64,000 bases of DNA from a virus (taxonomy: Duplodnaviria; Caudoviricetes). Made by a program: the position numbers and the translations under genes. The DNA lies in IMG/VR virus record IMGVR_UViG_3300012956_000024, positions 2,166 to 66,165 of that record; one strand, given 5' to 3'. The notes beneath the pieces are model-generated. The model saw only the letters and a list, made by a program, of their open reading frames with translations. It did no database searches and was not told the origin of the DNA. Below, in pieces: positions 825 through 59,249 of this stretch. Every line of letters starts with the position of its first letter. Within the stretch, counting starts at the first letter, position 1.

Positions 825-1042
825 GGGTGCATCCTCTGCAGCCAGCTCTCGCTGTTGAGATCGGCCAGCGCCTGCTCTTCGGTGGCGTAGTAGCCCGAGT
901 CACGGGTGCCGGGCTCTTGATAGCCGTCGGGGTTGTTGTATGCGGTGCCGATGTAGAAACCGGCAGCAGAGCGTAGGACCATGAGGTCCGTGTAGAGGTG
1001 CTCGTTGGGTGGATCGAATGATGCAGCGATATACGAACGCAT
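821..1042 (-). CDS. Hypothetical phage protein (VLRSAAGFYIG...YYATEEQA)
   Basis: AGGAG SD before ATG at 1042. Confidence 0.75.
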   Translation of the reverse strand: MRSYIAASFDPPNEHLYTDLMVLRSAAGFYIGTAYNNPDGYQEPGTRDSGYYATEEQALADLNSESWLQRMHP

Positions 1043-1047
1043 GGGGC

Positions 1048-1245
1048 TTACTCCTGTGGGGTGATGCCAAGAGCTAGCAGTTGCTGCTCCAGGCGTTCGA
1101 TTCGGGCGTAGAACGACTTGCGCTCGCTGTCGCAATCGTCGTAGTCCTCGTTGAGGCTGATGTTGGCTTCGTTCTCCAACGCCAGCATGTCGCGGTACAT
1201 CCGGGCGCGGCTAATGACGTGCTTGAGTATGCGGCGGGTGTTCAT
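1048..1245 (-). CDS. Hypothetical protein, 65 aa
   Basis: AAGGAG SD; downstream of leader repeat copy A. Confidence 0.7.
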   Translation of the reverse strand: MNTRRILKHVISRARMYRDMLALENEANISLNEDYDDCDSERKSFYARIERLEQQLLALGITPQE

Positions 1246-1254
1246 GGTGTGATC

Positions 1255-1310
1255 TCCTTGGAGCAGGATGCTCAACAGGGAAGTGCCCCTACCCGTTTTG
1301 GGTAGTGGCT
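1255..1310 (-). promoter_or_regulatory. Two-hairpin early leader element, copy A
   Basis: GCCCCTACCC 1285-1294 with inverted arm 1300-1309; TGCTCAA 1269-1275; SD follows. Confidence 0.7.
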
Positions 1311-1316
1311 GAAGGG

Positions 1317-1727
1317 TCAGAGAGATGCGCGGATTTCCATGATCAGCTTGCCGAGGTTGTTCTCGCCGACGCCGAGGCATACGCCCCAGAAGACGTCGCC
1401 CCAGGTGTTGCCCTCAATGATGAGATGATTGCCTGTAGCAAGCAGTAGTTCGCGGTAAGGGGTCTGCGCGAATTTCTGCTGTAGCAGATTGCGCATTACG
1501 CTGATTTTTACGGTGTCCCAATCAAGCCGCATAGCGACGTAGCGACCAGCGCGTTTTGCTGCGCTTGCGTGAGCCATGCGCATGATTTGTTTGCGCTGAT
1601 CGAGGTTCAATGTTTTTGCAGCTTGATATGCATGCTCCGTGCTTGCGTATGTTTCACCATCCAGTACGACGAGGCATGGGCTGAAGTTGCTAAGCCAGCG
1701 GTACTCACCTTGAAACGAAATGATCAT
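1317..1727 (-). CDS. NADAR (YbiA-like) family protein
   Basis: Motifs WLSNF, STEHAYQAAK, KF.Q, LLLATG, EGNTWGDVFWG, G.NNLGK.IM.IR. Confidence 0.93.
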   Translation of the reverse strand: MIISFQGEYRWLSNFSPCLVVLDGETYASTEHAYQAAKTLNLDQRKQIMRMAHASAAKRAGRYVAMRLDWDTVKISVMRNLLQQKFAQTPYRELLLATGNHLIIEGNTWGDVFWGVCLGVGENNLGKLIMEIRASL

Positions 1728-1736
1728 TGAAATACC

Positions 1737-1789
1737 CCAGTGAATGAATCACAAAGCGTTGCTCCTACCCGCTTTTCAGCGGGTAGTCC
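1737..1789 (-). promoter_or_regulatory. Two-hairpin early leader element, copy B (divergent)
   Basis: GCTCCTACCCGC/GCGGGTAG stem; second hairpin GUGA/UCAC on minus strand. Confidence 0.55.
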
Positions 1790-1930
1790 TTATTTGCAGC
1801 GTCGCAGGATGAGCAGGATGGCGAGCGCGCAGCCGATGATGATTGGATCGAGGAGCAGAGTGCCTACGGCCAGGTAGACCGTGGCGATTGAGGTGAGGCA
1901 GGCGCGCAAAATCGGGTTGAAGCTGCTCAC
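1790..1930 (-). CDS. Small membrane protein, 46 aa, ~2 hydrophobic segments
   Basis: Hand-translated MSSFNPILRACLTSIATVYLAVGTLLLDPIIIGCALAILLILRRCK; AAGGAG SD, GTG start. Confidence 0.75.
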   Translation of the reverse strand: MSSFNPILRACLTSIATVYLAVGTLLLDPIIIGCALAILLILRRCK

Positions 1931-1958
1931 GATAGAGTCTCCTTGTACGTATCGGGTT

Positions 1959-2270
1959 ACGTCACAACGTCACACGGATTTGGGTGTCGCGGTGCTTTGA
2001 AAAGCTCGTCGGTGCGTTTTGAAAAAGCGTCGGTGGTCAAAGATTGACCAGTGTTTAGACGTCTATACGACTTTTTCGGCTGTAAGTCGTTGATTTTACA
2101 ACGTCACACGGCGAAGCTGAATATGTGACGTAATGTGACGTGGTTTGTGACGTGCTTTTTAGAAGCAATGTATACAGCATAGACTCTCTAAGTACCTAAA
2201 AAATAGGTGTTTTATGAAAGTCAAGTAGGTAGCTGATAGCTGTTCAGGATGTAACGTCACAAACGTCACA
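1959..2270. repeat. Array of 8 perfect ACGTCACA octamers with AT-rich core (putative origin or pac region)
   Basis: Forward 1959, 1967, 2101, 2254, 2263; reverse 2124, 2134, 2146; 14-mer ACAACGTCACACGG at 1964 and 2098. Confidence 0.85.
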
Positions 2271-2401
2271 GGTTGGAAACTGAATGCGGAAACCGGTACC
2301 TCTGACGCTCGCCAGCCGACTCAGTTTTGGAGCTGTGACGAAACCTGAACGAAAACACGGACGCTTGTACGTACACGTACATCTGTACGTACTGACGGTG
2401 T

Positions 2402-2446
2402 TTTCAAAAAACAAACGCCTCGCCCGGAGGGCGAGGCGTTTTGCAA
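2402..2446 (-). terminator. Rho-independent terminator
   Basis: AAACGCCTCGCC/GGCGAGGCGTTT stem then T-run on minus strand, just after stop at 2448. Confidence 0.85.
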
Positions 2447-2447
2447 A

Positions 2448-2555
2448 TCAGCGTTCGTTGATCATGCATGCGACGTTGGTGACGACGCGAACCACGAGGC
2501 CGGCGAGCAGGACGCCGCCGACGATTTTCAAAACGAACAAGGTTTCAGTGCTCAT
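2448..2555 (-). CDS. Small single-TM protein, 35 aa
   Basis: Hand-translated MSTETLFVLKIVGGVLLAGLVVRVVTNVACMINER; ATGA overlap. Confidence 0.7.
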   Translation of the reverse strand: MSTETLFVLKIVGGVLLAGLVVRVVTNVACMINER

Positions 2556-2890
2556 GTGAGTCTCCCGGCAAAGCGTTGCCATTGGCCTTCGGTCAGTAGT
2601 TTCCAGTACCGGACGACGCCGGTGTACGGCTTCTCCGGGTCTTCGCCTGGAATGATTTTGCGCTCGTACCCGTACAGATACTTGGCCATGCGAAAGCTGA
2701 TCGAGAACATGCAGGCCGCGGCCTCGGCCTGGATCATGTTCTCGGTTCCCCAGAACGCGTACATGATGAAGCCGTGCAGCGCGAGATCGTAAAAGCCCAT
2801 ATACCCGACCATGCGGCGTTTGGTTTGGGCTGACAGATAATGGCTAAGCAGCCAGACGCTGAAGAAGCTGACGACAGCCGAAGCGATCAT
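2552..2890 (-). CDS. Membrane protein, 112 aa
   Basis: Hydrophobic segments; ATGA coupling. Confidence 0.75.
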   Translation of the reverse strand: MIASAVVSFFSVWLLSHYLSAQTKRRMVGYMGFYDLALHGFIMYAFWGTENMIQAEAAACMFSISFRMAKYLYGYERKIIPGEDPEKPYTGVVRYWKLLTEGQWQRFAGRLT

Positions 2891-2973
2891 GGTCTGATCC
2901 TCTTGGAGATGAGAAGAAAGATGACGCCGATTATCACCGGCGCCATGTCAATCCAGAACTGCTCGTCCATCAT
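2887..2973 (-). CDS. Micro membrane peptide, 28 aa
   Basis: Hand-translated MMDEQFWIDMAPVIIGVIFLLISKRIRP; ATGA overlaps at both ends. Confidence 0.6.
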   Translation of the reverse strand: MMDEQFWIDMAPVIIGVIFLLISKRIRP

Positions 2974-3161
2974 CCGAGGATGATGCGCTTCGTGATGTAC
3001 ACCTGGGCGGCGTGGATGCCGAGGCATACCGCGACGAACCCGGTGGCGACATAGCCGACCTTCGCGTTGTCCGACGTAGCCGCCTTGATCAGGCGAGCCT
3101 TGAACGAGGGCTTGGCCGGCTTGATGTCGGAAATCTTGGCGCTGAGCTTGGGTGCGGACAT
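2970..3161 (-). CDS. Small protein, basic N-terminus plus one TM
   Basis: GAGGAG SD before ATG at 3161; follows leader copy C. Confidence 0.75.
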   Translation of the reverse strand: MSAPKLSAKISDIKPAKPSFKARLIKAATSDNAKVGYVATGFVAVCLGIHAAQVYITKRIILG

Positions 3162-3177
3162 GGTGTACTCCTCAAGT

Positions 3178-3234
3178 TGATGAGCGAGATTGCTCAATGA
3201 ACCATCGCCCCTACCCATGTGGGCAGAGGCGATG
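3178..3234 (-). promoter_or_regulatory. Two-hairpin early leader element, copy C
   Basis: 14-bp stem with two G-U pairs on minus strand; TGCTCAA 3191-3197, 9-nt spacer. Confidence 0.75.
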
Positions 3235-3238
3235 AGGG

Positions 3239-3502
3239 TCACGCTTGCGCGAACGCTTGCAGTTCGGCAGACGAGACGCTGCGTTTGTCGGGGTGCGCAG
3301 CGAAGTAGCGACGGATGGCGTCGTTGCGCGCACTCACCGTGGGGCGCGTGTTCGGCACCTGGGCAGGCACCAGACTCTTGAGACGCTTGATCTCACGCTG
3401 GGCGCACGTCAGGGAGTGCGCGTAGTTGGCGGCGAGGGCGCGCAGCTGGGCAGCTTCGGCACGGGAGGCAGCGAGCTGAGCGGTAAGGGTTACACGGGCC
3501 AT
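3239..3502 (-). CDS. Hypothetical protein, 87 aa
   Basis: AGGAG SD; follows leader copy D. Confidence 0.75.
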   Translation of the reverse strand: MARVTLTAQLAASRAEAAQLRALAANYAHSLTCAQREIKRLKSLVPAQVPNTRPTVSARNDAIRRYFAAHPDKRSVSSAELQAFAQA

Positions 3503-3507
3503 GATCT

Positions 3508-3563
3508 TCTCCTATGAGCGGAATGCTCAAGAGACGTAGCCCCTACCCACGAGGGCAGGGGCT
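3508..3563 (-). promoter_or_regulatory. Two-hairpin early leader element, copy D
   Basis: GCCCCTACCC 3539-3548 / GGGCAGGGGC 3553-3562; TGCTCAA 3524-3530. Confidence 0.75.
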
Positions 3564-3568
3564 TGCGG

Positions 3569-3718
3569 CTATGCGTACTCGGCCAGGATGGAGGGGATCA
3601 GATTAATTGCTTCGATACGGGTGGGGTAGGGGCCATAGTTGCCGGTTGCCTCGTGCCCTACGTACCAGCCATCGGCCTCACACCACACGTACATGTCGCC
3701 TACTTTCTCGCAGTCCAT
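3569..3718 (-). CDS. Hypothetical protein, 49 aa (MDCEKVGDMYVCGEADGWYVG...)
   Basis: Hand-translated; AAAGGAG SD. Confidence 0.7.
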   Translation of the reverse strand: MDCEKVGDMYVWCEADGWYVGHEATGNYGPYPTRIEAINLIPSILAEYA

Positions 3719-3724
3719 CACGCA

Positions 3725-3781
3725 CTCCTTTGGTTGGGATACTCAAAAGCAAATAGCCCCTACCCGTGAGGGTAGGGGCTA
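3725..3781 (-). promoter_or_regulatory. Two-hairpin early leader element, copy E (could also act as terminator)
   Basis: Perfect 12-bp IR TAGCCCCTACCC/GGGTAGGGGCTA; TACTCAA 3740-3746; TTTGCTTTT follows on minus strand. Confidence 0.75.
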
Positions 3782-3786
3782 GATGA

Positions 3787-3963
3787 TCAGATGCCGAATA
3801 CCTTGTTGAGTGCAACCTTGGCCAATGCGCCAGCGATGATGCCTGCCGAGCAGCCGATGGCGAGAGCGATGGCTACGTCCTTGCCGTTCTGTGGTGCGAC
3901 GCAAGCCTGGACAGCCTTGTTCTTGAGGTTGGTAGCCGAGGTCTTGAGGGATGCGAAGGTCAT
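3787..3963 (-). CDS. Small protein with C-terminal hydrophobic helix, 58 aa
   Basis: GGAG SD before ATG at 3963. Confidence 0.7.
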   Translation of the reverse strand: MTFASLKTSATNLKNKAVQACVAPQNGKDVAIALAIGCSAGIIAGALAKVALNKVFGI

Positions 3964-4095
3964 GGGATTCTCCAGTTGGGGGTTGTGTTGCACCATTCTT
4001 TGGCCCTACCCCCGCCTGGGCTGGTACCGGGGTATGGGACTCCGAAGGTTTTCTGTGGGGGTGCGTGAACCGAACCAAGGGCCGGCTTCTAGCAG

Positions 4096-4350
4096 TACGG
4101 GGGTAGAGAATCTGATATCCAAGAGGTCTAATCATTTTTTCAAAAAACATTGTGTCTATCACTTTTTTCGAAACTCAAAATCATTTTCCCGCCTCGTTTC
4201 GCCGCACATTCTATAAAATTTCGTTGCTAGCAGTGTCTTTATAATTTTGTACTCACACCTATTGTATTTCCATTTTTACACTCACATTCTGCTTGCGCGC
4301 CGCGCGCGTTTGGAGTAGGGTGCGCCGACGCACCCTATCGGAGCCCGCGA
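4096..4350. promoter_or_regulatory. AT-rich divergent control region between early and late arms
   Basis: Noncoding, T/A tracts, TATAAT 4240-4245, TATAAA 4212-4217, 9-bp hairpin 4317-4338; no clean -35 found. Confidence 0.55.
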
Positions 4351-4352
4351 AG

Positions 4353-4589
4353 ATGTCTTCATTCTCAGTAGCCCTCGAAAATTTGAAGCAAGGCCGAAAA
4401 GTCCGCCGTACCGGCTGGAACGGCAAGGGACTCACCCTCGAGCTGCAGCGCCCCGACGCGCACAGCAAGATGACCTTGCCCTACATTTTTATTACATACC
4501 CGGCCGATTCCCCGAATACACCGGGAGCCCGGTGTCCGTGGCTGGCCAGCCAGACGGACTTGCTCACTGACGATTGGGAGCTTGCATAA
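4353..4589 (+). CDS. tad2: DUF2829 family protein (Thoeris anti-defence Tad2-like)
   Basis: FSVALENLKQGRKVRRTGWNGKG ... PWLASQTDLLTDDWE. Confidence 0.88.
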   Translation: MSSFSVALENLKQGRKVRRTGWNGKGLTLELQRPDAHSKMTLPYIFITYPADSPNTPGARCPWLASQTDLLTDDWELA

Positions 4590-4590
4590 A

Positions 4591-4971
4591 ATGACCACGC
4601 GGCCGGCTACCATCAACTTCTACATGTACCCCTACGCCTCGTTTTCCGAAACGACGACGCTGAAGGACTCCGCCGGTGTGGCCATCGATCTCACCGGCCG
4701 CACAGCGCTGATGCACATTCGTCGGAACATCGACGATGTCACGCCGGTGCTCACGCTGAGCACGGCGGACAGTACGATCATTCTCGGCGGCGCGGCCGGC
4801 ACGATCGTCCTGGCGTTGAGCCCGCTGCAGACCAGCGCGCCGACCGTAGAGTGGGAGGGCGAGAGCTGGGTCCACGACCTCATCCTGACGACGACCGCGA
4901 GCGGCTTCGCCGAACGCACCTACCAGGGCGCCATTTTCGTCATGCCCGGTATCACGAGGCCCGCGCCGTGA
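4591..4971 (+). CDS. Virion structural/tail-fibre-associated protein (BppU-N-like)
   Basis: AIDLTGRTALMHIRR ... IVLALSPLQTS ... YQGAIFV.PGIT pattern. Confidence 0.6.
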   Translation: MTTRPATINFYMYPYASFSETTTLKDSAGVAIDLTGRTALMHIRRNIDDVTPVLTLSTADSTIILGGAAGTIVLALSPLQTSAPTVEWEGESWVHDLILTTTASGFAERTYQGAIFVMPGITRPAP

Positions 4972-5240
4972 GCCCCTCTCCTTCTTTTCCGTCATCCGTC
5001 GTGCGCGAAATCGTCGCGAATCCGAACCTGGCGCTGACGAACGCCGTCATCGCGCAGAAAATGCGGGAGCTGGCCGACGAGATTGAAAAAGGCGAGTACG
5101 GAGACGCGGTCGAACACGTCGTCAGCATCATTGTCCCGTACCGCGAGCCGATGGTGCGGTCTGTCCTCGGCGCGCGTTGCGCGAAAGCGCAGCTGATCGG
5201 TATCCTTGCGATGGCGCAACATGAAGAGCTGACGCGCTAA
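4968..5240 (+). CDS. Hypothetical protein, 90 aa
   Basis: GTGA overlap. Confidence 0.6.
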   Translation: MSPSPSFPSSVVREIVANPNLALTNAVIAQKMRELADEIEKGEYGDAVEHVVSIIVPYREPMVRSVLGARCAKAQLIGILAMAQHEELTR

Positions 5241-5265
5241 CCTTTCCCGCCCGGAGAAGCCTGAT

Positions 5266-5679
5266 ATGTCCGCTGTTCTTGCTCGCGCCATCCAGTTCGC
5301 CCTTCGCCCGCACATCAGCGGGAATGTGATTGACCGCGCGCAGATCGCCAACGCGCTGTACCTGTTGCCGCCACCGGAAGGCGCATCCTACAACCCGTTG
5401 CTCGACCACGCCGAACAAAACACGCCGAAGGGCTACCGGTTGACGGGGGCCGCGCGCGACCGCCTCGAACGGCTGAGCCGCGCACCGGACGCCGCGGCGC
5501 GTCGCCGCCTGCTGCACTCGTTCCGCAACGAGTCGATCCGCACGTTCGAGCCCGACATCCTCATCCTCGACGAGACCTTCGAAGAGGTCGAAAACAGAAA
5601 AGGCGTCGTTACATTGGCCCAGCTGCAGGCCGCCGTCGCCAAAGTTCGCCGTCCGCTTACCGAAGAGGACATCATATGA
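5266..5679 (+). CDS. Hypothetical protein, 137 aa
   Basis: GGAG SD; ATGA overlap downstream. Confidence 0.7.
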   Translation: MSAVLARAIQFALRPHISGNVIDRAQIANALYLLPPPEGASYNPLLDHAEQNTPKGYRLTGAARDRLERLSRAPDAAARRRLLHSFRNESIRTFEPDILILDETFEEVENRKGVVTLAQLQAAVAKVRRPLTEEDII

Positions 5680-34946: not shown

Positions 34947-37900
34947 GTGGCCACTCAATTTGACTCGCTTATCCCTGACGACGCGAACCCCTACGTTACT
35001 GATGCGATGCGCCGTCGAGGCGCACCGATCGATACGACGTTCGTCCACAGCGACGCCCCTGATGGCAGTTTTGAAAACCAGACCGACGGGCTCACTCGCC
35101 GTCTGCGGTCTGCCGCGACAAATTTCGAGTCCTACGTGCCAGCGGTCGAAGGACTCGCGCGGCAAGTCGTCGGTGATCAGGAAGGCGCGCAGAAGGCGTA
35201 CCAAGAGTACGGCGACCTGCAGCAGCGTGCCCAGGCCATCGGCCCCGACGTGCAGACGATGGACGACGTGCGCCGCCGCGGCAGCACGCCGGAAGCCTAC
35301 GCCGAGTTCGCCGCAACGCAGGCGGTCAACGCCGTCCCTGACATCCTCGCCACCGTCGCCACGGGTGGCTTTGGTGGCGCTGTCGGCGGAACCATCGCTC
35401 GCCGCGCAGGACTGCGCGCTGCGACCGCCGCGGCCGAACGACAGGCCGCGAAAGAGGCAGCGCCGGCGCTCGCCGAAGCCGTTGTCAAAGCACAGGGCTC
35501 CGACGCGGCTGAGCGCCTGGCACGGCGTCAACTGGTTGAAGAAACGACGCAGCGCACGCTGCGCGACCGCACGCCCGAAGTGCTGGCCGCGCAGCGTGCG
35601 ACCGAGGAAGCGGCGGTGAAAGCCGGTCAGATTGTCGGCTCGACGGCAGGGCAGTACCCCGGTGTCGTCGCCGACAGCGTCGAAGCGCTGAAGAATACGG
35701 ACCAGGAAGGCGCGCTCAAGATCGGCGGTGCCGACATCGTCTCGGCCGCGTTCGGCTCGCTGCCGGCTGAGCGTTTCCTCTCACGGCTTGGCGGCGGTGC
35801 TGCGCGCCAGGTGCTCGAAGATAGCGCGCGCAAGATCCTCCCCCGCGTGGCGAAAGAGTTCGCCACGCAAGGCGCGCTCGAAGGCGGTGTCGGTGTGGGT
35901 CAGGCTGCGATCCAGCTCGCGGGTCACAAGTGGGTCGATGACAACGTCGATCTGGTCGGCCCCGAAGCGTTCGACCGCTACCTCGCCGAAGCGGTGGGCG
36001 GCTTCTTCGCCGGCGGCACGATCAGCGGTGTGCACACCGCGGGCGCCGCGGGCGTCGAGCGTTGGAAGGAAGGCGCGCAGGGCCGCGGTGAAAAGTACAA
36101 CGCGCTCAAAGAGCGCCTGGTCAAGAACATCCGCGCGGCGGGTGCTGCGGCCGAGTCCAAGCTCGGCGATATCCGTGACCGCGTACGCGCCGGTGAAACA
36201 GAAGGCGCACCGCGGCCGAAGCCGGGCGACCCGATCAACGCGGACGGCTCGCCAGCGAACGGTGCAGACTTCGTTGTTTCTCCTGACGGCACCACGGTCG
36301 CCGCGGGCGACAGCACGCGTGCGAGCGCCGCTGACTTCTTCGCACGCGCGCAGGAAGGGTTGAACCGCGCCGTCGGCGCGGCACCTGGTGTCGCTGCGAA
36401 AGCGAAAGCCGGCATCGACTCGATCATCGACCGTTTCAAAAAGACCGACGCGCAGGTGCAGAACGACGAGTCGATCGAAACTGAGAGCGACGAAGTGTCG
36501 CGTCGGACGCTCGCGAACATGGTGCGTGACTACGAGAGCGGTGAAATGCCCCCGGAGCTTCAGGGCGCCATGGGCAACCGCGCACCGAACCAGAATCCGA
36601 TCCAGTTCGAAACCAAGACCCAAGACGTACTCGCGACGATCATCCCGCGCGACCACGCGCTCTGGCAGTACCCCGACACCGCGCAGGCGATGATGCGCTC
36701 GGCCGAGAAGATCTTCACCGGCGAAGAGCGCACCGAAACCGATGACCGCCACATCGGTCTGTTGCAGTCATTGGCCCCCGACAAGGTCGCTCGATGGGAA
36801 GCGGCGAACCTTGACGCTGACGGCTACGGCGGCGCCATGAGAGTGGCGAAGCGACTCACTGAGAACCGCCGCCTCTCTGCGCGTGAGCGCGCGGCTGAAC
36901 GCGAACAGACCAACAAGCCGACCGTCGAAGTCCTCGACACACTGGGCAAGACGTTCGACGGCCAGACGGCTGTCACGCGAACTGCGCGCGTGCGCGAGCG
37001 TTCGCCGATGGCCGCCGAAGCGACCGTGCGCGGCCCTGAACCGACGTCGACGACCGAGTTCGACGCGCGCACCGCGCGCGACCCCTCGACCGCCGACATC
37101 ACCGAGACCGATCTCAACGACGCCGAAGCCATCGACCCGCGCGACTCCGACGCCGAGGTCATGGGCGGCTTCGGCAGCGGCATCAGCGAAGCCGACGCCG
37201 TCCAGGACTCGCCACTCGACAAACTGCCCAACACCGACCCGACGTCTCGTGAGTACCCGGCGCTTCAGCGCGCTGCGCGTGAAGAGCTGCTGGGCGGCCA
37301 GCCCGACCTGGAGACCGGCGGCTTCCCCGGTGGCAACGAGAGCCGCATATTCAAGGAAGGCACGAACGAGAAGCTCTACAGCGAGAAGCTCAACTCGGCG
37401 TCGACCGTCAAGACGGACAAGACCTTCCGCATCGGCGGCGTGCAGCGCGCGAAGCTGCTCGAGCTGGGCAACATGGTGCAGTACCAGCGCGCGAAAGAAC
37501 CAGGCATGGGCGCGCTCGAAGCTATCCAGCAGTCCATCGCCGATCTGAAACTTGCCGGCGTCAACGTCGACCCAAGCACGTTCAGTGAGGGGGCGGTGCG
37601 GACCATCAAAGGGTTCACGTTGAGCCGCGCGCTGGAGGAACACCGGAAGCAGCCAAGCGCGAAGACGATCTCCGAGCTGCGGACGCTGATCGACAAGTCC
37701 GCCGGGTTGTCCGATGCGGACGTCGTTGCCCGCGCACAGCAGAAGCTGCAGACCGAGACCGTCGGCAAGCTGTCTCGCGCCGATGTAGCAGCCTTGCGCA
37801 ACACAGCGACCGACGCCGACATCAAGACCAAGGCTGCCAGGGTCAGCGAGGCAGTGGACGCCGCGCGTCAACGCCCGCTGACCAGCGAAGACCACGAGAG

Positions 37901-40900
37901 TATCGGTGAGTTACAGGCGCTACAAGAAAAGTACCTCACCAACGCACAGGCCGAAGCGCTCGGCGACGCCCAGCGCAAAATGCAGCCGCTCGAAATCAAG
38001 ACTCCGGTCGGCGTTTTTTACACGGAAAACTTGGGCGACCACGCCAGCATATCGTTCCGCCCCGAAGACCTGTCGAGCAATTTAAACGCAGAAGCAGCCT
38101 ACGAAAGAGCACTCAAAGCCGGCACGACGAACGCCACGACACTCAAGGACTTCATCGCCGAAAAAGCCGACGCTCGTCCGAACGAACGCACCGAGCGGCA
38201 GAGCTTCGACCAGATCCAGTCCAACGCGGTCGAGGACATCAGCCTGCGCGAGCAGGCGCCGCGCGAAGCACCACCGCGCGAGATCGACGCTATCACCAGG
38301 GAGAAGGTGACAACGCAGCGCGCCATCGCCGACGTCAGTCTCAACACGACGTACGCCCGTGAAACTACCGGTGCGCGCAAGGCGCGTGTGGCTGCGCGCG
38401 AGAGCATCGTCAAGTCACAAGCCAAGATCGCCGAGATCGAGAACAAGCTGGACGACGCGTCGTCGCGGCGTCCGATCAGCCCCGACAAACGCGCCACGCT
38501 CGAAGCGATCGTCAGCAAAGGCAGTCGTGCGCACGCTGATGCGAAGTACGCACAAGAAGTAGCGGTCAGGTACGCGCAGAACGCGCTGGACCCTACGGCT
38601 GGCGGACCCGGGCGCGACGCCATGTCTGACGCGGAGGCGCGTGAGCACCAGGCGCTGGTAGCTAAAGCCAACGCGCTGTGGACGCCTGACGTACAGAAAA
38701 CAGACGCAGCGATAAAGGCGCTCGACAATTCACGGCCTTCGGACATAAACCCGCAGAAGCTGCAGGCCCAGCTCGCCCGCGAGAAAGACAGCGTCCGTTT
38801 TCAGGAGCGCATTGTCGCTGACGCACTGGTGGAGGCCGGTCGCAAGATCGGCCTGGCTGAACTGAAGCGGGAGCATGACAACAACCGGCTCAGCACGGAG
38901 AAGTACGGCAAGCAGCGCAAAGCGTTGGAGGAAGACGACGCCGTTGCCGAGGACTACTTCAAGCGCGCAGATGACGGCGAGTTCGACGGCCGTCCGCACG
39001 TTACCGAGGTCGCGCAAGACAAGAGCGAAGTCAAGCGTGAAGCCGACGACGTGGAAGACAAACTCAACGCTGTAGCGAGGGCGCACTTTGGCAAAGAGTG
39101 GGCGTACGCCAAAGTCGATAAAGACGGGGTCAACCCGTTCACAGGCAAACCAACGCCTTCCAAAGCCAAGATGTTGTACAAAGCGCTGTCGGCGAAACTG
39201 ACGCCGCGCGAAGCAGCGGCCGAGCGTCTGCGTCAAGCGGGCAAGCGCAAGGCGACGACGCCCGAGGCGGTCAAGGCCAAGCGTGAGCTGCGCGAGAAAT
39301 ACCTCGCCTACCCCGCCGAGCTGCGCTCGAAACTCGACCTGATCGAAGCGGCGCGTGATGTCGTCGACCAGCTGCCCTCCGGCGACCCGCTGCGCGCGGC
39401 GTACGAGAAACTGGCCAAGGCGTCGAACGTACCGATTAACGACAAGGCACCGCGCACGGGCAAACTGGACGGCGCGAAGGACGCCGCTGCGCGCGAGACC
39501 GCACGCCAGCGTAGCGAGCGCATCGCCGAGCGTGCGAAAGGTGAGCCCGAGTACATGCGTGCACGCAAACGTGCGCAGCGCATCACTCGCCGTGAAGCCG
39601 CAGCCAAAGCCGCAGCGAGCAACCCGGCGGAGAATCTGCTCGACCCTTCGACAGCGAAACCTGACGCTGACAGTAAGCAGCGCGTCAACAGCAAGGCGCT
39701 GTCCGACTCGCCGCCCGCGACGCAGGCGGAAGCGCGCGACGCCCGCCTGACTGCGCGCGAGAAAGCGGCTGCGCAAGCCAAGCGCGACGCTGAGAACAAA
39801 GGCAAACAGCGCAAGCTGCAAGAACAACTCGACGAGACGATCGACGACGGCGTCGAAGCGGCGACCAATGAAGACGGCGAGCACGACCTCAAAGCGGAAG
39901 CCAGCATGCTCAACGCGCTGCTTGAGCGCATGGGGCTTGGCGGACACCCTGTTACGGTCGAGGCGTTGCCCGAGCATCGTCGTACAGGGCCGGGCGAGCC
40001 TGGCGGCTCGTACGTTGGCGGCACGATATATATCAACCCGGCGCTGAAAGGGCCTGAGCGCATTGAAGTGCTCGCGCACGAGCTGGGGCACCACGTCATC
40101 CGTGCGTCGATCGCTGAAGCGAGCGGCGGTGAAGTGACGGCCAACGAGTTGGGCTATTTCAAGTCTGACGACGTGCTCGAGATGCTGCGCGTGTCGAACC
40201 CGGATCTGCACGCGGCGATCAAGTCCGATTTCGAATCGTGGGCCGCGAAGAACCCGGCATCGCGGCGCGTAGTCGACGCGCGCGCGTCGCGCGCTGCGTT
40301 CCACCGTGCGCGTGCGCTGCTGTCGCGCAATACGAGGTCGAAAGAGACGACCAACGACCTGTCGATCGAAAAGCAGCAGTACGCCTACTCGATGGACGAG
40401 TACATCGCTGACAACATCGCTCGCGCGCTCGCCGGCAAGCACGAGTCGCAGACCGTCATCGGCAAGTTCTTCAACGACATCGCCGCGAAACTGCGTGCGG
40501 TGTACGACGCGCTGTTCGCCAAAGGCAACGCCAAGTGGGCGCCGGCGCCGTCCGTCGACAAGTGGGTGCAGGGCCTGTTCGACGCGAACGTGCGCGACGT
40601 GTCCGAAGCCATCGGTCAGCCGGTGTCGAAGGAGACGGCGGACGCCGGCATTCGCGCGGCCGTAGAGAACGCGTTCCAAGGCCCCGTCTTCCCCGCCCGT
40701 CCGTCGAAACTCAACACCGGCGCACCGCCGCCACCGGGGCCGACGCCGGCGCAGCCCAACACACCGCCGCCGCGCGATCCGAAGAGCTTCCGCGACATGC
40801 TGCGTTTCGTGCGCGGCACGCTGCGCACCCCGGAGCGCAAGATCCTTGACCGCGTGCTCAGCCGCGGTGCGGTCGACAAGCGGCTGCAGGAGATCTACAA

Positions 40901-43586
40901 GGACAACCCCGGCGCGCTGCGTTTGCTCGACGACGCCAAGCACGGGCTCGAAGGCCGCATCGCACTCGCGTACTTCGCCTGGAAGGACGGCAAGCTCACG
41001 ACGGGGCCAGAAGCGACGAACGCGCTGTTCGACATCGACGACACGCTGCGCTCGGTTCTCAACGTGTCCAGTGATGGCGCGTACGCGCAGCGCATCTTCG
41101 ACGACATCGCCACCGGGTACATCAGCCGCGTCGAGGCGGCCGGCAAGACCTATGACATCCGCGACCTTGAAACCCGCGCTCGCGGCAAGCTCAACGCCAC
41201 GCTCAACCATTTCAGCGACATCGCTGAGAAAATCGGTGAACCGTTGTCGAAGTTCTGGGAAAGCAAGATGTCGCGGGCGTTCAACAGCGGTATCCCGGCG
41301 TACCGTCATTTCGCGTCACTCATCCAGCGCCCCGGCGGCAAGACCGGCGACGACCGCGGCTTCAATCCTAGCGTCGTGCATACGACCGCACGCTACGTGC
41401 GCCAGGCAGGCCGCGTGTTCGAAGGCTTGAGTGAGCGCGACATGCACAAGGCGCTGACCTACCTGCAGCGCGGCCCCAGCGCGAGCAAGTTTCCCGACGT
41501 CAACCGCAACGTCTCATACGCGGAGTTTGCGAAGGCTCATTTCGCGAGGGAGAAAGCGGCGCGTGCTCCTGGCGCGCGCCTCGATAAGTTCGTGCACGGC
41601 GATGTAAATGCGGCGTTCGTACGTCAGGCGAACGAGCAGGAGCTGAAAGGATTCATCGACACGCAGATAGACAAAGAACGCGGGCTACAGCGGACAATCG
41701 ACGCCATAGTAGAAGACGGCGGTGAAGCCGGCGCGCAAACAACGCTGCTGCAGCAGATCGTCGATGAACGCAAACTTGCGGAGGCGCGCCTTGAAAAACT
41801 GCCTGCTGCGCGTAAAGCCGAAAGTGAGCGCGCGGGAACGCCCGAAGGCACACGCCCTGAGATACGCGCCGCCATCGACAAGGCACGCAAGCTCATGGAT
41901 GACCTGCACGCCTACGCGACGGACGCCGGCGTCAAGCTCCCTCGTCGTTCGAACTTCTGGCCGGTGGTGCTCGATCTGCGCAACGATACGGCGAAGACGC
42001 GGCTGACCACTCTCTACAGCCAGCCGCACTTCGAAGCGCGCATCCGTGAACTGTTCGGCTCGAAGGACAAGCCGTCCGACCTCCCGATCGCTGACTTGGT
42101 CAAGAACCTCGTCGACGGCGCGACACAGGGTGAGCATGGCGCTCCGACCACGGGTGCTGGCGCGCCGAACTTCAAGTCCGCCAACTACCGGTTGAGCCAG
42201 TTCGTCTACGACCTGGGCTCGCCGGCCGACATCGACACGTTCGCTGCCCTGCAGTCCAAAGATCCGGCCGAAGTGCTCGGCCGCTACGTGGAGCCGCTGG
42301 TCAAGCGGGCTGAGTACGCGCGCCGGTTCGGCGACGACGGCGCGCGGGCCAATCGCCTGCTCGAACAGATGAAGGCCCAGGGCGCCACGGACGCCCAGGT
42401 CGGCGAAGCCCGGAACACCCTCAAGGCCGCGCTGGGCACCTACGGCGCCGAGGGCTCCCCCCTGATCGCCATGCTCTCTCCGGGGCTCTCCCAGCGCCTG
42501 GCGACCCCACGGACGCGGAGCATCATCCACGGTCTGCAGGCGTACCAGAACGCCCGTCTGTTGCCGCTGGCGACGCTCTCGAGCCTCGTCGACCCCATCG
42601 GCATCGCCGTACGCACCGGAGGCGACTTCAAGACGGCCTGGGATGGCTTCAAGCTGGGCATGAAGGCGCTGCGCGACAAAGGCACGCGCGACGACATCCA
42701 TCGCCTTCTGGAGACGCTGGGGAGCACAGAGGACATCGGCACGCTGGAAGCTCTGCAGCAGGGCTTCGGCGGGGGTGACAGCCCGTCTTCACGGAAAGTT
42801 AACGAGTTCGTGTTCAAGTGGAACGGCCTGCAGGGCTGGACGCGGGCGACGCGCTACATGGCCCTGAAGGCGTCCAACGGCTTCATGCTCAAGCACGCAG
42901 CCGGGCAGGGCGACAGCGGGCGCTACCTGCGCGAGCTGGGGCTCAAACCGGGTGACGTGCAGCCAGGCGTTGGCGGCAACGTCAAGCTCCTGACCGACGC
43001 TGAACGCGCGAGCGCTACGCCCGCCGAAGTGCGACGCGACGACCGCGTGCGCAAGGCCATGATGCAGTTCGTCGACGAGGCGATCCTGCGGCCGAACAGC
43101 CAGCAGACGCCGCTCTGGTACTCCGACCCCTACGTGGGTCTGGTCACGCAGTACAAGGCGTTCGCCTACGCGCTCTACGACCAGATCGGCGGCCGTATCG
43201 CCCGCGAGATGTCACAGGGCAACCTCAAGGTGCTGCTGCCGGCGCTGGCCTACCTGCCGGTGACGATCATGGCCGAGCTGCTGCGTGAGCTGCTGCAGTA
43301 CGGCCCGGACGGTAACCCGAGGCGCAAGTCGTGGGGCGCGGCAGAGTACACTGGCCTCGCCGTCAGCAAGCAGCTGGCCATGCGCGGCCCGAAGCTCGAG
43401 GTCCAGGCCGACATCGTCAATGACTTCAAGCAGCAGCGTGTTCCGGGCCAGTCGCAGACCGGCCCGACAATCAGCCAGGCGATCGACGTCGTTGACGGCG
43501 GCGACAACCTGCGCACCCTCGAAGCCGCGCTCCCTGCGAGCGCACTCTGGAAAAGGTGGAATGACGATGACCGACCGACAGGATGA
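34947..43586 (+). CDS. Giant internal virion/polyvalent protein with zincin-like metallopeptidase motif, 2879 aa
   Basis: IYIN...EVLAHELGHH (40077-40091) plus DEYIADNIA downstream; terminal position in late operon. Confidence 0.8.
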   Translation: MATQFDSLIPDDANPYVTDAMRRRGAPIDTTFVHSDAPDGSFENQTDGLTRRLRSAATNFESYVPAVEGLARQVVGDQEGAQKAYQEYGDLQQRAQAIGPDVQTMDDVRRRGSTPEAYAEFAATQAVNAVPDILATVATGGFGGAVGGTIARRAGLRAATAAAERQAAKEAAPALAEAVVKAQGSDAAERLARRQLVEETTQRTLRDRTPEVLAAQRATEEAAVKAGQIVGSTAGQYPGVVADSVEALKNTDQEGALKIGGADIVSAAFGSLPAERFLSRLGGGAARQVLEDSARKILPRVAKEFATQGALEGGVGVGQAAIQLAGHKWVDDNVDLVGPEAFDRYLAEAVGGFFAGGTISGVHTAGAAGVERWKEGAQGRGEKYNALKERLVKNIRAAGAAAESKLGDIRDRVRAGETEGAPRPKPGDPINADGSPANGADFVVSPDGTTVAAGDSTRASAADFFARAQEGLNRAVGAAPGVAAKAKAGIDSIIDRFKKTDAQVQNDESIETESDEVSRRTLANMVRDYESGEMPPELQGAMGNRAPNQNPIQFETKTQDVLATIIPRDHALWQYPDTAQAMMRSAEKIFTGEERTETDDRHIGLLQSLAPDKVARWEAANLDADGYGGAMRVAKRLTENRRLSARERAAEREQTNKPTVEVLDTLGKTFDGQTAVTRTARVRERSPMAAEATVRGPEPTSTTEFDARTARDPSTADITETDLNDAEAIDPRDSDAEVMGGFGSGISEADAVQDSPLDKLPNTDPTSREYPALQRAAREELLGGQPDLETGGFPGGNESRIFKEGTNEKLYSEKLNSASTVKTDKTFRIGGVQRAKLLELGNMVQYQRAKEPGMGALEAIQQSIADLKLAGVNVDPSTFSEGAVRTIKGFTLSRALEEHRKQPSAKTISELRTLIDKSAGLSDADVVARAQQKLQTETVGKLSRADVAALRNTATDADIKTKAARVSEAVDAARQRPLTSEDHESIGELQALQEKYLTNAQAEALGDAQRKMQPLEIKTPVGVFYTENLGDHASISFRPEDLSSNLNAEAAYERALKAGTTNATTLKDFIAEKADARPNERTERQSFDQIQSNAVEDISLREQAPREAPPREIDAITREKVTTQRAIADVSLNTTYARETTGARKARVAARESIVKSQAKIAEIENKLDDASSRRPISPDKRATLEAIVSKGSRAHADAKYAQEVAVRYAQNALDPTAGGPGRDAMSDAEAREHQALVAKANALWTPDVQKTDAAIKALDNSRPSDINPQKLQAQLAREKDSVRFQERIVADALVEAGRKIGLAELKREHDNNRLSTEKYGKQRKALEEDDAVAEDYFKRADDGEFDGRPHVTEVAQDKSEVKREADDVEDKLNAVARAHFGKEWAYAKVDKDGVNPFTGKPTPSKAKMLYKALSAKLTPREAAAERLRQAGKRKATTPEAVKAKRELREKYLAYPAELRSKLDLIEAARDVVDQLPSGDPLRAAYEKLAKASNVPINDKAPRTGKLDGAKDAAARETARQRSERIAERAKGEPEYMRARKRAQRITRREAAAKAAASNPAENLLDPSTAKPDADSKQRVNSKALSDSPPATQAEARDARLTAREKAAAQAKRDAENKGKQRKLQEQLDETIDDGVEAATNEDGEHDLKAEASMLNALLERMGLGGHPVTVEALPEHRRTGPGEPGGSYVGGTIYINPALKGPERIEVLAHELGHHVIRASIAEASGGEVTANELGYFKSDDVLEMLRVSNPDLHAAIKSDFESWAAKNPASRRVVDARASRAAFHRARALLSRNTRSKETTNDLSIEKQQYAYSMDEYIADNIARALAGKHESQTVIGKFFNDIAAKLRAVYDALFAKGNAKWAPAPSVDKWVQGLFDANVRDVSEAIGQPVSKETADAGIRAAVENAFQGPVFPARPSKLNTGAPPPPGPTPAQPNTPPPRDPKSFRDMLRFVRGTLRTPERKILDRVLSRGAVDKRLQEIYKDNPGALRLLDDAKHGLEGRIALAYFAWKDGKLTTGPEATNALFDIDDTLRSVLNVSSDGAYAQRIFDDIATGYISRVEAAGKTYDIRDLETRARGKLNATLNHFSDIAEKIGEPLSKFWESKMSRAFNSGIPAYRHFASLIQRPGGKTGDDRGFNPSVVHTTARYVRQAGRVFEGLSERDMHKALTYLQRGPSASKFPDVNRNVSYAEFAKAHFAREKAARAPGARLDKFVHGDVNAAFVRQANEQELKGFIDTQIDKERGLQRTIDAIVEDGGEAGAQTTLLQQIVDERKLAEARLEKLPAARKAESERAGTPEGTRPEIRAAIDKARKLMDDLHAYATDAGVKLPRRSNFWPVVLDLRNDTAKTRLTTLYSQPHFEARIRELFGSKDKPSDLPIADLVKNLVDGATQGEHGAPTTGAGAPNFKSANYRLSQFVYDLGSPADIDTFAALQSKDPAEVLGRYVEPLVKRAEYARRFGDDGARANRLLEQMKAQGATDAQVGEARNTLKAALGTYGAEGSPLIAMLSPGLSQRLATPRTRSIIHGLQAYQNARLLPLATLSSLVDPIGIAVRTGGDFKTAWDGFKLGMKALRDKGTRDDIHRLLETLGSTEDIGTLEALQQGFGGGDSPSSRKVNEFVFKWNGLQGWTRATRYMALKASNGFMLKHAAGQGDSGRYLRELGLKPGDVQPGVGGNVKLLTDAERASATPAEVRRDDRVRKAMMQFVDEAILRPNSQQTPLWYSDPYVGLVTQYKAFAYALYDQIGGRIAREMSQGNLKVLLPALAYLPVTIMAELLRELLQYGPDGNPRRKSWGAAEYTGLAVSKQLAMRGPKLEVQADIVNDFKQQRVPGQSQTGPTISQAIDVVDGGDNLRTLEAALPASALWKRWNDDDRPTG

Positions 43587-55027: not shown

Positions 55028-55474
55028 TCATACTCCTTTCGGTTGGTTGTCTTCCCAGCGGTAATTCACTGGATCGGACGATGGGAATGCGCGTGTTGCA
55101 GTAACGAGGAGCCAGCGCGACATAAGGTTTTTTGCGTTGGCTTCGGCCTCTTCCTTGGTCGCGAAGCGAAGCGCGTTGCTTGACCATTTGTCGCCGTTGC
55201 CGGCCGTTTGCACTTCTGGCTTCCAGCTCACGACACGGATCATCGTGTTGCCGTTGATGTCCGTCTTGCACTCCGGGCAGTGGTACGGCCACTCAGGTTG
55301 CTGCGGAGACGACGAGTCCCACAACATATTGCTGCCGTCGTGAAACTCGGGTTCGAGATCGCCGTCAACTTCGTTGAACCCCGCGATTTTGATAACGGCG
55401 ATAACCGTGTCGATCTGATTCAGTTCGGTGTTGCCGCAGTTCGGACATGCGCAGGTGATGAGATCGTCACTCAC
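55028..55474 (-). CDS. Zn-ribbon-containing hypothetical protein
   Basis: CPNC...CPEC; GTGA overlap. Confidence 0.7.
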   Translation of the reverse strand: MSDDLITCACPNCGNTELNQIDTVIAVIKIAGFNEVDGDLEPEFHDGSNMLWDSSSPQQPEWPYHCPECKTDINGNTMIRVVSWKPEVQTAGNGDKWSSNALRFATKEEAEANAKNLMSRWLLVTATRAFPSSDPVNYRWEDNQPKGV

Positions 55475-56004
55475 AACGTGAGCCCCAAGTGCTTGACGAC
55501 CGCCTGCAGGTACTCGGCCTGATAGATCGCGTCGTCGAGCGCGTTGTGATGTGTGCCTTTGCGAACGGGCTCTACGAAATCCCGCGTCTTGCCGAGGTTC
55601 TTGAGCGTGCGGAAGCAGCGGTTGCGGCTGTAGCGCCAGCCCTGAAGGTCGAAAGACTTGATTGCGCTGGCGAGAATGGCGTTGTCGAAGTCCGAACCGT
55701 TGCCCCACACGCCTTCAGCGTTGGTGCAGAACGCGCCGAAGTTGCTCAGTGCGGTTACGGGAGCGACGGCGTGTACGTTGAACACGTTGCGCGCTTCGGG
55801 TGCTTGCTGCATCCACCACTTGAGCGTGTCCGCGCTGACTGTTCGGCCGACATCGATCTGTGGCTGCAGGCGCAGGACTTCATACAGTGTGTCGCTCGGG
55901 AAGATCGGGCCTTCTTTGTTCGGATCGAACAGAACCGCGCCGATCGAGACGACGACAGCAGTGGCGGTGGTGTCAAGTGTTTCGATGTCTACCATGCAGT
56001 GCAT
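55471..56004 (-). CDS. DEDD 3'-5' exonuclease/exoribonuclease
   Basis: MVDIETL, WGNGSDFDN.IL, HNALDDA.YQA. Confidence 0.9.
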   Translation of the reverse strand: MHCMVDIETLDTTATAVVVSIGAVLFDPNKEGPIFPSDTLYEVLRLQPQIDVGRTVSADTLKWWMQQAPEARNVFNVHAVAPVTALSNFGAFCTNAEGVWGNGSDFDNAILASAIKSFDLQGWRYSRNRCFRTLKNLGKTRDFVEPVRKGTHHNALDDAIYQAEYLQAVVKHLGLTL

Positions 56005-57833: not shown

Positions 57834-58632
57834 TGAGTTTCGCTCCGTCTTTCAGAGAGTAGTAGACGTATTTACGTCCGAAGAGCATTCGGTACGCGTT
57901 GGGTTGGGGTTGCCCAGTGTCGTTGTGCGCGGACATCGCAGCTGACTTCGCCGCTGGGCGCGGCGTTTTCTCCAGCACGCTGCGAGACGCACGCTGCTTC
58001 GGAGATGGATCGGCCGCAGCCTTGGAGGCGACTCGCGGACCAGGGGGAGTCCGTTTGGGCGACGGGGCTGCGGCCGAAGGAGGAGCCGGCTGTTTCGCGC
58101 GAGTGGCTGTTGCAGAACCCCTCGGAGGGTGTAGTGGCGCTGGGGAGGGCGCTACCCTCTTGCTGCGCGAAGCAGCCGGCATAACGGGAGCCGCCTGCAC
58201 ACCACTGTTTCGCTGTGGGGGCGTTGCCCCGCGAGGTCGGGTGGCAGGCGGCATAGAACGGTCGCCCCCGCTTTTCAGCGGTTCTGCCGGGGGCGTAATG
58301 GCAGTGGGTGCCCTGTGAGAGCCCGCTTTCTTCTCGACACTTCGACAGCGGGGCGCCGATCCCCCGAGGATACCCGCTGCCTTTGTCGCAGCAGCAGGCG
58401 CTGTCGAGAACATCTTACCAATACTTACAGCTTCGCGTGCGACGCGCTCATTCATCGGTTTGCTACGCGCCAATGCGTAGCCTTTTTCGGTCAAGCGCGC
58501 CCACTCACCGAACTTGCCCTGGCCTTGTTCGGCTAGGCCGCGCTTAACCAGTGCAGCCGTTTCAGGCTGCGGCCGATCGGAACACAATGCCAGATCGTGC
58601 AGGTGCTGGGTCTGCGCTTCAGTGAGCTTCAT
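57742..58632 (-). CDS. wHTH-like N-terminus plus long Pro/Ala/basic disordered region
   Basis: LVKRGLAE...LTEKG; low complexity; ATGA overlap with upstream stop. Confidence 0.5.
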   Translation of the reverse strand: MKLTEAQTQHLHDLALCSDRPQPETAALVKRGLAEQGQGKFGEWARLTEKGYALARSKPMNERVAREAVSIGKMFSTAPAAATKAAGILGGSAPRCRSVEKKAGSHRAPTAITPPAEPLKSGGDRSMPPATRPRGATPPQRNSGVQAAPVMPAASRSKRVAPSPAPLHPPRGSATATRAKQPAPPSAAAPSPKRTPPGPRVASKAAADPSPKQRASRSVLEKTPRPAAKSAAMSAHNDTGQPQPNAYRMLFGRKYVYYSLKDGAKLSGSKDRVRTECRLNRPTPVGSPESDKDILC

Positions 58633-59177
58633 GGCAGCTCGAGTTCGTCGCTCAGATCTTGCGGGATGATGGCCGGCAGGTTGTCGGCGTTGGCGGGCTC
58701 GAGCTTGACGAGGACGTTCCGCGCAGCAGGCCACACCTCGTAGAGCTTTTTCCACGTGCTAACGCTAGCCAATACACCGGAAATCTTCGTCTGCAGTGTT
58801 GCGCGCTTTTTTTCGTTTGCGTCTACTGCAGTCTCGAGGTCTGCACAAGTCGACGCATCGATCGTGAGTTCCGGCGCGTGCCAGATGTTGGTGTGCGTGG
58901 CGAGAAAACGCATCTCGCGTGGGAGTGGTGCAAGGATGATACTGATCAGGACGCTTCCTGGTGGCGTGTAGACCAAGCGCACAGTCGAATATGTCGGCAA
59001 CCACCCATCTGGAAGTTGAGACATTCGGGTCTGAGTATCGGCATCGTACAACCGGTTGTATGCTTCCGTTGCAGTGCTGAGCTTCAGCGCCTTGAGAGCG
59101 GCGTCACTTTTCTTCATGCCGCGTTCGAGCAGAACGTGGCGGATTGTTTCGCGGTCTTGTTTACGAAGGCGGGTCAT
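58629..59177 (-). CDS. Nmad5-like protein
   Basis: MTRLRK..RE.I; L.SV.TWKKLYEVWP; LPAI. Confidence 0.75.
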   Translation of the reverse strand: MTRLRKQDRETIRHVLLERGMKKSDAALKALKLSTATEAYNRLYDADTQTRMSQLPDGWLPTYSTVRLVYTPPGSVLISIILAPLPREMRFLATHTNIWHAPELTIDASTCADLETAVDANEKKRATLQTKISGVLASVSTWKKLYEVWPAARNVLVKLEPANADNLPAIIPQDLSDELELP

Positions 59178-59249
59178 AATCGTATCCAGATAAGGAAGAG
59201 AAGTGTGGCGATAATGTGCCACGGGTAGTTGGCGATGAAGGTGCCAACA

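Follow-up and report, generated by a model that had tools for sequence, protein, structure and literature searches.

In this study, we analysed a repeated two-hairpin unit that precedes small early genes in the virus record IMGVR_UViG_3300012956_000024. The window, i.e., the whole stretch of 64,000 nucleotides examined, covers bases 2166-66165 of this 66,165-bp record, which is rated complete; positions below are those of the window unless they are given as record positions. The portal, terminase, DNA polymerase and primase-like protein are distant kin of those of the Pseudomonas phages KPP25 and phiR18 and the Acidovorax phage AP1 (33% identity for the portal and 31% for the primase), and by these sequences the phage is classed as a KPP25-like podophage. 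The structural genes lie on the plus strand from about 4300 to 43600. The small early genes lie on the minus strand from about 3963 downward and extend past the window's left edge; should the record be circular, the series goes on into the replication genes at the right-hand edge. The genes between the units are ORFans that differ from phage to phage and are without a PHROG or Pfam match, except for one gene with a NADAR domain (1317-1727), and only two early genes have homologues in related phages.

The unit is about 65 nt long and reads, on the mRNA (minus) strand, as the preceding gene's stop codon, a first hairpin (HP1), a pyrimidine-rich linker, a second hairpin (HP2), the Shine-Dalgarno sequence (SD) and ATG. 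HP1 is G+C-rich, with 9-14 bp, a loop of at least 3 nt and a folding energy of -14 to -29 kcal/mol. The linker has 5-11 nt, and HP2 has 4-6 pairs and a loop of 4-6 nt; the SD follows 2-20 nt later, and then the ATG. The unit starts 2-8 nt past the preceding stop codon in every copy but the first, which has no gene before it, and no unit is present where adjacent early genes overlap stop-to-start (2448-3161). The window contains five full copies (A-E) and one variant first copy, all on the minus strand. Immediately left of the window the record (G000:C1) has two further copies, and in all it has 7-8. They are given below from the first early gene downward, together with a terminator that serves as a comparator (z, folding z-score).

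4004-4038, minus strand: variant first copy, HP1 only, 9 bp with a bulge and a 16-nt loop; no HP2.
3719-3783, minus strand: copy E; HP1 3754-3781, T-rich tail 3744-3753, SD 3725-3730, ATG 3716-3718; 61.4 bits; HP2 degenerate (3731-3746), with AUCCC retained.
3500-3566, minus strand: copy D; HP1 3538-3563 (one G-U pair), linker 3530-3537, HP2 3515-3529 with loop AUUCC, SD 3509-3513, ATG 3500-3502; z -4.77; 64.7 bits.
3159-3234, minus strand: copy C; HP1 3203-3234 (G-U and U-G pairs), linker 3197-3202, HP2 3181-3196, SD 3168-3173, ATG 3159-3161; z -4.70; 65.4 bits.
2413-2441, minus strand: canonical intrinsic terminator at the end of the first early gene block, unrelated to the units; comparator, outside the family.
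1725-1794, minus strand: copy B; HP1 1765-1786 with a decayed lower stem and an apical GC extension, HP2 1740-1752 with the compensatory stem GUGA/UCAC, weak SD, ATG 1725-1727 of the NADAR gene; z -4.16; 40.9 bits.
1243-1313, minus strand: copy A; HP1 1285-1309, linker 1275-1284, HP2 1261-1274 with loop AUCCU, SD 1254-1258, ATG 1243-1245; z -2.95; 63.3 bits.
Record 1513-1592: first copy left of the window; HP2 stem with a compensatory change.
Record 393-461: second copy left of the window and last copy of the series; HP1 stem followed by a T-run, no HP2, i.e., a canonical terminator.

The original prediction, made from the sequence alone, had placed five copies on the minus strand and a half copy near 4003. 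A unit is present at each of the five places, and the half copy corresponds to the variant first HP1. Beyond that prediction, HP1 is seen to be a terminator-type hairpin that closely follows stop codons, the linker to be rich in pyrimidines and one copy to be a canonical terminator, and two more copies are present. The repetition far exceeds chance: the 10-mer of the 3' arm, with at most one mismatch allowed, has 12 occurrences in the window where 2.1 would be expected, a count of 12 being reached in 0 of 100 shuffles, and the true copies among these matches all lie at 1285-4011. In the whole record it has nine exact matches, compared with none for a reversed control word. Each full copy folds as drawn (z about -3.0 to -6.4). 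The variant first copy, which stands before the first early gene within a block shared with the relative L046, shows no significant folding when taken alone (z 0.13).

Loci near primase homologues were collected from viral and metagenome contigs, and a covariance model was built on ten copies. The model matches only six phages: the present one (G000), G003 (the same as L046), G004 (the same as L047), L193, L196 and L197. All of its matches lie upstream of the primase and on the primase strand, which is the early-gene strand. No match was found in three nearly complete relatives (G001, G002 and G005), in KPP25 or in the other fetched loci, nor in the 79 scanned of 118 loci that have only the loose word pattern; the upstream regions examined in G001, G002 and G005 consist of structural genes on the other strand. 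The unit is therefore patchily distributed within one clade. The core genes of the six unit-bearing phages are only about 50-58% identical in protein, and all relatives are about 65-72% identical in DNA; the two modules keep their joint order and spacing.

Covariation in relatives had been set beforehand as a test of the prediction, and it is evident in an alignment of 18 copies from the six phages. The proportion of cells that pair is 93.3%, compared with 78.6% in shuffles and at most 52.6% in slid controls. Double changes occur at 10 of 16 pairs (37 cells), and any of these measures was reached in 0 of 500 shuffles. In HP2, covariation extends to every one of the four core pairs, and 97% of their cells are paired; one L047 copy has the HP2 arms exchanged. 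The outer pairs of HP1 covary, four inner pairs are invariant, and the core CUACC/GGUAG is retained; the fifth inner pair is A-U in 11 copies, G-U in five and G-C in one. Wobble pairs usable only on the mRNA strand (G-U) outnumber A-C mismatches by 15 to 5, the bias that selection of the hairpin as sense-strand RNA would produce. The stem mismatches of copies C and D are likewise G-U on the mRNA strand, just as had been proposed. All 18 copies have A as the first base of the HP2 loop, and 16 of them close it with a C-G pair; most loops read A-Y-Y-C-C, with deviating loops in L046 (AAUGUC) and L197a (AUGUC). The linker is conserved in composition alone, and the columns flanking the SD show no conservation beyond GGAG. 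Judged from this alignment, the HP2 loop and the HP1 core are kept beyond structural need.

These results bear on the earlier view of the second hairpin as one opened by UUGAG(C/U)A. The hairpin is real and covarying; its conserved part is the loop rather than the TTGAGC word. This -35-like word is one version of the covarying stem, and unrelated stems replace it in relatives. No copy contains a sigma-70-like site: neither a -10 element nor a hexamer pair at a spacing of 16-18 nt was found. Together with the covariation and the G-U excess, this upholds the claim that the repeat is an RNA element and not a sigma-70 promoter.

The unit could not be assigned to a known family, as the original prediction had also stated. 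A search of Rfam with the whole window gave no match at the gathering threshold, and no relevant match at E up to 1 in 1000-4400. The family of two-hairpin units is undescribed and absent from RNA family libraries. An origin as a host repetitive extragenic palindromic (REP) element or another borrowed repeat was considered and rejected, the exact hairpin having 65 scattered matches, at most three per genome, among 185,579 species genomes. Viral matches of the hairpin word (36 loci) are unrelated terminator-like hairpins, none with an HP2. A scan for the arrangement hairpin-hairpin-SD of any sequence gave 19 matches on one strand and 18 on the other, without contrast between the strands.

HP1 is a stable G+C-rich hairpin at a gene end, as intrinsic terminators have. 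An HP1 stem with a T-run forms the canonical terminators that close the early block, here and in relatives, and a similar place in the early region of a relative that lacks the repeat is occupied by an ordinary terminator with the same CTACCC core and a T-run. A U-tract, taken as at least five T in the eight nucleotides after the stem, is present within the window in copy E only (copies A-D have three T in eight) and left of it in the copy at record 393-461. With a rough discriminant after d'Aubenton-Carafa 1990, the two-hairpin copies score from -56 to +25 and are positive in six of 18 cases, within the window only for copy E; the plain terminators of these phages used as a comparator score +9 to +67. 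On these results, HP1 is terminator-derived and graded. Most copies here should let the polymerase pass, and the last copy would terminate, as copy E probably does.

Many of the minimum-energy folds show HP2 extended by pairing between the linker and the SD. A coupling switch, in which a ribosome reaching the stop codon would open HP1 and so release the SD, found no general support: the mean probability that the SD is paired was 0.70 versus 0.66. Release occurred only in copies E and C, and the switch was dropped as a general rule.

In L046, a tandem duplicate early cassette (4597-4899 and 5014-5484; 90% protein identity) has a unit before each copy. L193, L196 and L197 have one early gene in common: in L193 and L196 a unit comes after it, whereas in L197 it overlaps its neighbour and no unit is present. 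In L046 and L047, half copies consisting of the 3' arm only come directly behind regions that are promoter-like or rich in repeats. The proposal that the repeat serves as a recombination handle for cassette shuffling fits the ORFan content and this gain and loss of units.

We propose, with about as much confidence as doubt, that the unit is a cis-acting composite intercistronic element of the early polycistronic mRNA, in which an attenuator or 3'-protecting HP1 and a leader HP2 mark the joints of cassettes. HP1 with a U-tract would terminate transcription. HP1 without one would be passed by the polymerase, and probably causes slight attenuation and shields the upstream message from 3'-5' decay. 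The linker and HP2 would form a common leader of the next gene, in which the stem of HP2 is free to vary. Because the stem changes under a retained closing C-G pair and A-Y-Y-C-C loop, this loop is probably recognised by a single common factor or fixes a common level of translation or stability. The units would also supply homology for the gain, loss and duplication of early cassettes, since the same unit of about 65 nt stands at the joints of unrelated ORFans.

Several results weigh against this proposal. The probability that the SD is paired ranges from 0.28 to 0.81 in 12 copies and from 0.42 to 0.76 in composition-matched shuffles, without excess, and it is no higher than for 19 other genes of the phage (mean 0.60). 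A search of phyletic patterns found no gene or binding protein that tracks the unit across genomes. Only six of 18 HP1 copies are of terminator grade by the rough discriminant, so that attenuation by the remaining copies is a guess. No gene precedes the variant first copy or, in relatives, the half copies; therefore, HP1 is not solely a gene-end signal. Furthermore, a recent exchange at a unit could not be caught, because no relative is close enough (about 65-72% DNA identity).

Four other explanations were weighed. The conserved unit at early gene junctions, the single-stranded linker between two stable hairpins and the structure on the sense strand would all suit an endonucleolytic punctuation, in which the early precursor would be cut at every unit by a host RNase, either RNase E within the linker or RNase III acting on HP1. 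Upstream messages would then end in HP1 and downstream messages would begin with HP2. The model for this is T7 early mRNA, where RNase III cuts conserved structured signals at the junctions and the remaining 3' hairpin stabilises the message; here, too, a conserved structured signal stands at each early polycistronic junction. However, the hairpins of the unit are shorter than the T7 sites and perfectly paired, with no internal loop. An RNase III substrate has about two helical turns, for which an HP1 of 9-14 bp is short, and the linker is conserved in composition only. We consider punctuation unlikely. The HP2 loop might instead be a shared operator, through which one factor could co-regulate the translation of all tagged early ORFan genes, a tentative idea that we rather doubt. 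If it is true, some of the tagged ORFans are likely to be anti-defence genes, and genes that land between units would join the early programme at once. As an explanation of the unit, the operator would bind one trans-acting factor, either an RNA or a protein of phage or host, and the translation of all tagged genes would be turned on or off jointly. It would account for the loop and closing pair being kept on a covarying, and in L047 even flipped, stem, for the constant place of HP2 next to the SD and for AUCCC in copy E despite its decayed stem. Against it stand the lack of a co-occurring gene, the divergent loops of L046 and L197a, and a search of early and middle proteins that found no RNA-binding domain. 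The nut sites of lambda, which combine boxA with a boxB carrying a purine-rich GNRA-like pentaloop, occur once or twice per genome and work through an N-type protein; the present loops are pyrimidine-rich, the copies number 7-8, and no early protein has a family match. Such a switch seems to us quite unlikely.

The units might also be plain leaky terminators beside unrelated hairpins of ribosome-binding sites (RBS), their repetition reflecting mere duplication without a shared function. Copy E and the last copy do look like terminators, and the hairpin word is scattered as terminator-like hairpins in unrelated viruses and bacteria. In phiKZ, terminators are conserved in sequence, one hairpin sequence being reused many times (Putzeys 2024, PMC10914365). 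Like these and other intrinsic terminators, HP1 is a G+C-rich post-stop hairpin, with a U-tract in some copies and a sequence reused within the genome. Unlike them, most copies have no U-tract, and each is tied to a second hairpin and the next RBS. The retention of both modules in order and spacing across six phages whose core proteins are only about 50-58% identical, and the conservation of the HP2 loop and HP1 core beyond structural need, make this explanation very unlikely in our judgement. A DNA-level site, i.e., a phage-polymerase promoter, an operator or a site for site-specific recombination, would agree with the position of the units at cassette boundaries and with the 3'-arm half copies just after promoter-like regions in relatives. 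It is opposed by the G-U excess specific to one strand and by the absence of a -10 element, and we regard it as highly improbable. A dimer operator on duplex DNA was rejected, as the half-sites are spaced anywhere from 3 to more than 16 nt apart. The searches turned up neither an RNA polymerase nor a sigma factor, and sequence evidence for a virion RNA polymerase was not found. The N4 virion RNA polymerase promoter has a stem of 5-7 bp and a 3-nt loop, compared with the 9-14 bp and loops of at least 3 nt of HP1, and the 2879-residue virion protein of the present phage is unmatched by sequence. Integron attC sites are imperfect hairpins with extrahelical bases and have a tyrosine recombinase as their partner. 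An integron-like site was rejected because HP1 is perfectly paired and the complete record has no PF00589 tyrosine recombinase; G005 has a tyrosine recombinase and no unit.

A composite element of the early mRNA thus remains our preferred explanation, and two described systems resemble it in part. PeSL elements of T4-like phages consist of a terminator-like stem-loop and an early promoter, lie between small variable ORFan early genes, and have been proposed as joints for cassette shuffling (Arbiol 2010, PMC2839356; Comeau 2014, PMC4122927). Both recur as composite signals in intergenic regions, open with a terminator-like stem-loop, stand between variable ORFans in plastic regions, are alike in sequence within a genome and drift between genomes, and have a proposed role as cassette joints. 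The second half of PeSL is a sigma-70 promoter (-35, N17, -10), whereas the present unit has a covarying hairpin with a conserved loop in a KPP25-like podophage instead of a T4-like myovirus. The comparison with PeSL made in the original prediction is therefore only partial, holding for the stem-loop, the ORFan context and the shuffling role and failing for the promoter, which the two-hairpin unit does not carry. The start-associated sequences (SAS) and their extended form (ESAS) of Cluster K mycobacteriophages have no known function, a role in translation being suspected (Pope 2011, PMC3203893). They share with the present unit an inverted repeat, a variable spacer, a place before a start-associated motif of some non-structural genes and a subgroup-specific consensus. 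SAS is a fixed 13-mer that includes the SD, whereas here an ordinary SD follows a conserved hairpin loop, and the two have no sequence similarity. Covariation and strand asymmetry, seen here, have not been reported for ESAS.

Most of a phage's unknown and anti-defence genes are found in its early region, which is also the part with the fastest turnover. A portable joint without a promoter, made of a terminator hairpin and a leader hairpin, would explain how genes are swapped there without broken expression, and how one expression pattern is kept over a whole variable block. With its natural compensatory stem variants and its conserved, mutable loop, the unit of about 65 nt offers a clean test bed, and it would be a new entry for RNA family libraries.

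Other features of these genomes were also observed. The gene between copies B and A (1317-1727, minus strand) matches the NADAR domain in Pfam at an E-value of 6.7e-23. NADAR domains form part of enzymes that remove ADP-ribose, and the gene is a possible counter-defence gene. Non-coding blocks before the first early gene (window 4020-4100, minus strand, and L046 4500-4580) are kept between the two phages and include one identical 15-mer, the primases of both being only 50% identical; they could be the promoter or the 5' leader of the early operon. Past the terminator at 2413-2441, a 470-bp non-coding stretch (1935-2400, minus strand) is dense in GTGACGT/ACGTCACA words. A similar array of GTGAC words occupies the same place of the early region in relatives (L046 6690-6830 and L054 7840-7945), and the stretch could be an origin or a regulatory array. 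The 2879-residue virion protein is encoded at 34947-43586 (plus strand); it has no Pfam or solved-structure (PDB) match by sequence, and all that was seen in it is a PHROG match at the C-terminus and a short metalloprotease-like stretch. A tyrosine integrase lies between the early genes and the primase in L047 (6986-8116), a 68-kb relative, and the window phage has none; lifestyle may thus differ within the clade. The replication genes of the window include one for a 3'-5' exoribonuclease-like (Rv2179c-like) protein at 55471-56004 (minus strand) and one with a nucleotide-modification-associated Nmad5 domain at 58629-59222 (minus strand).

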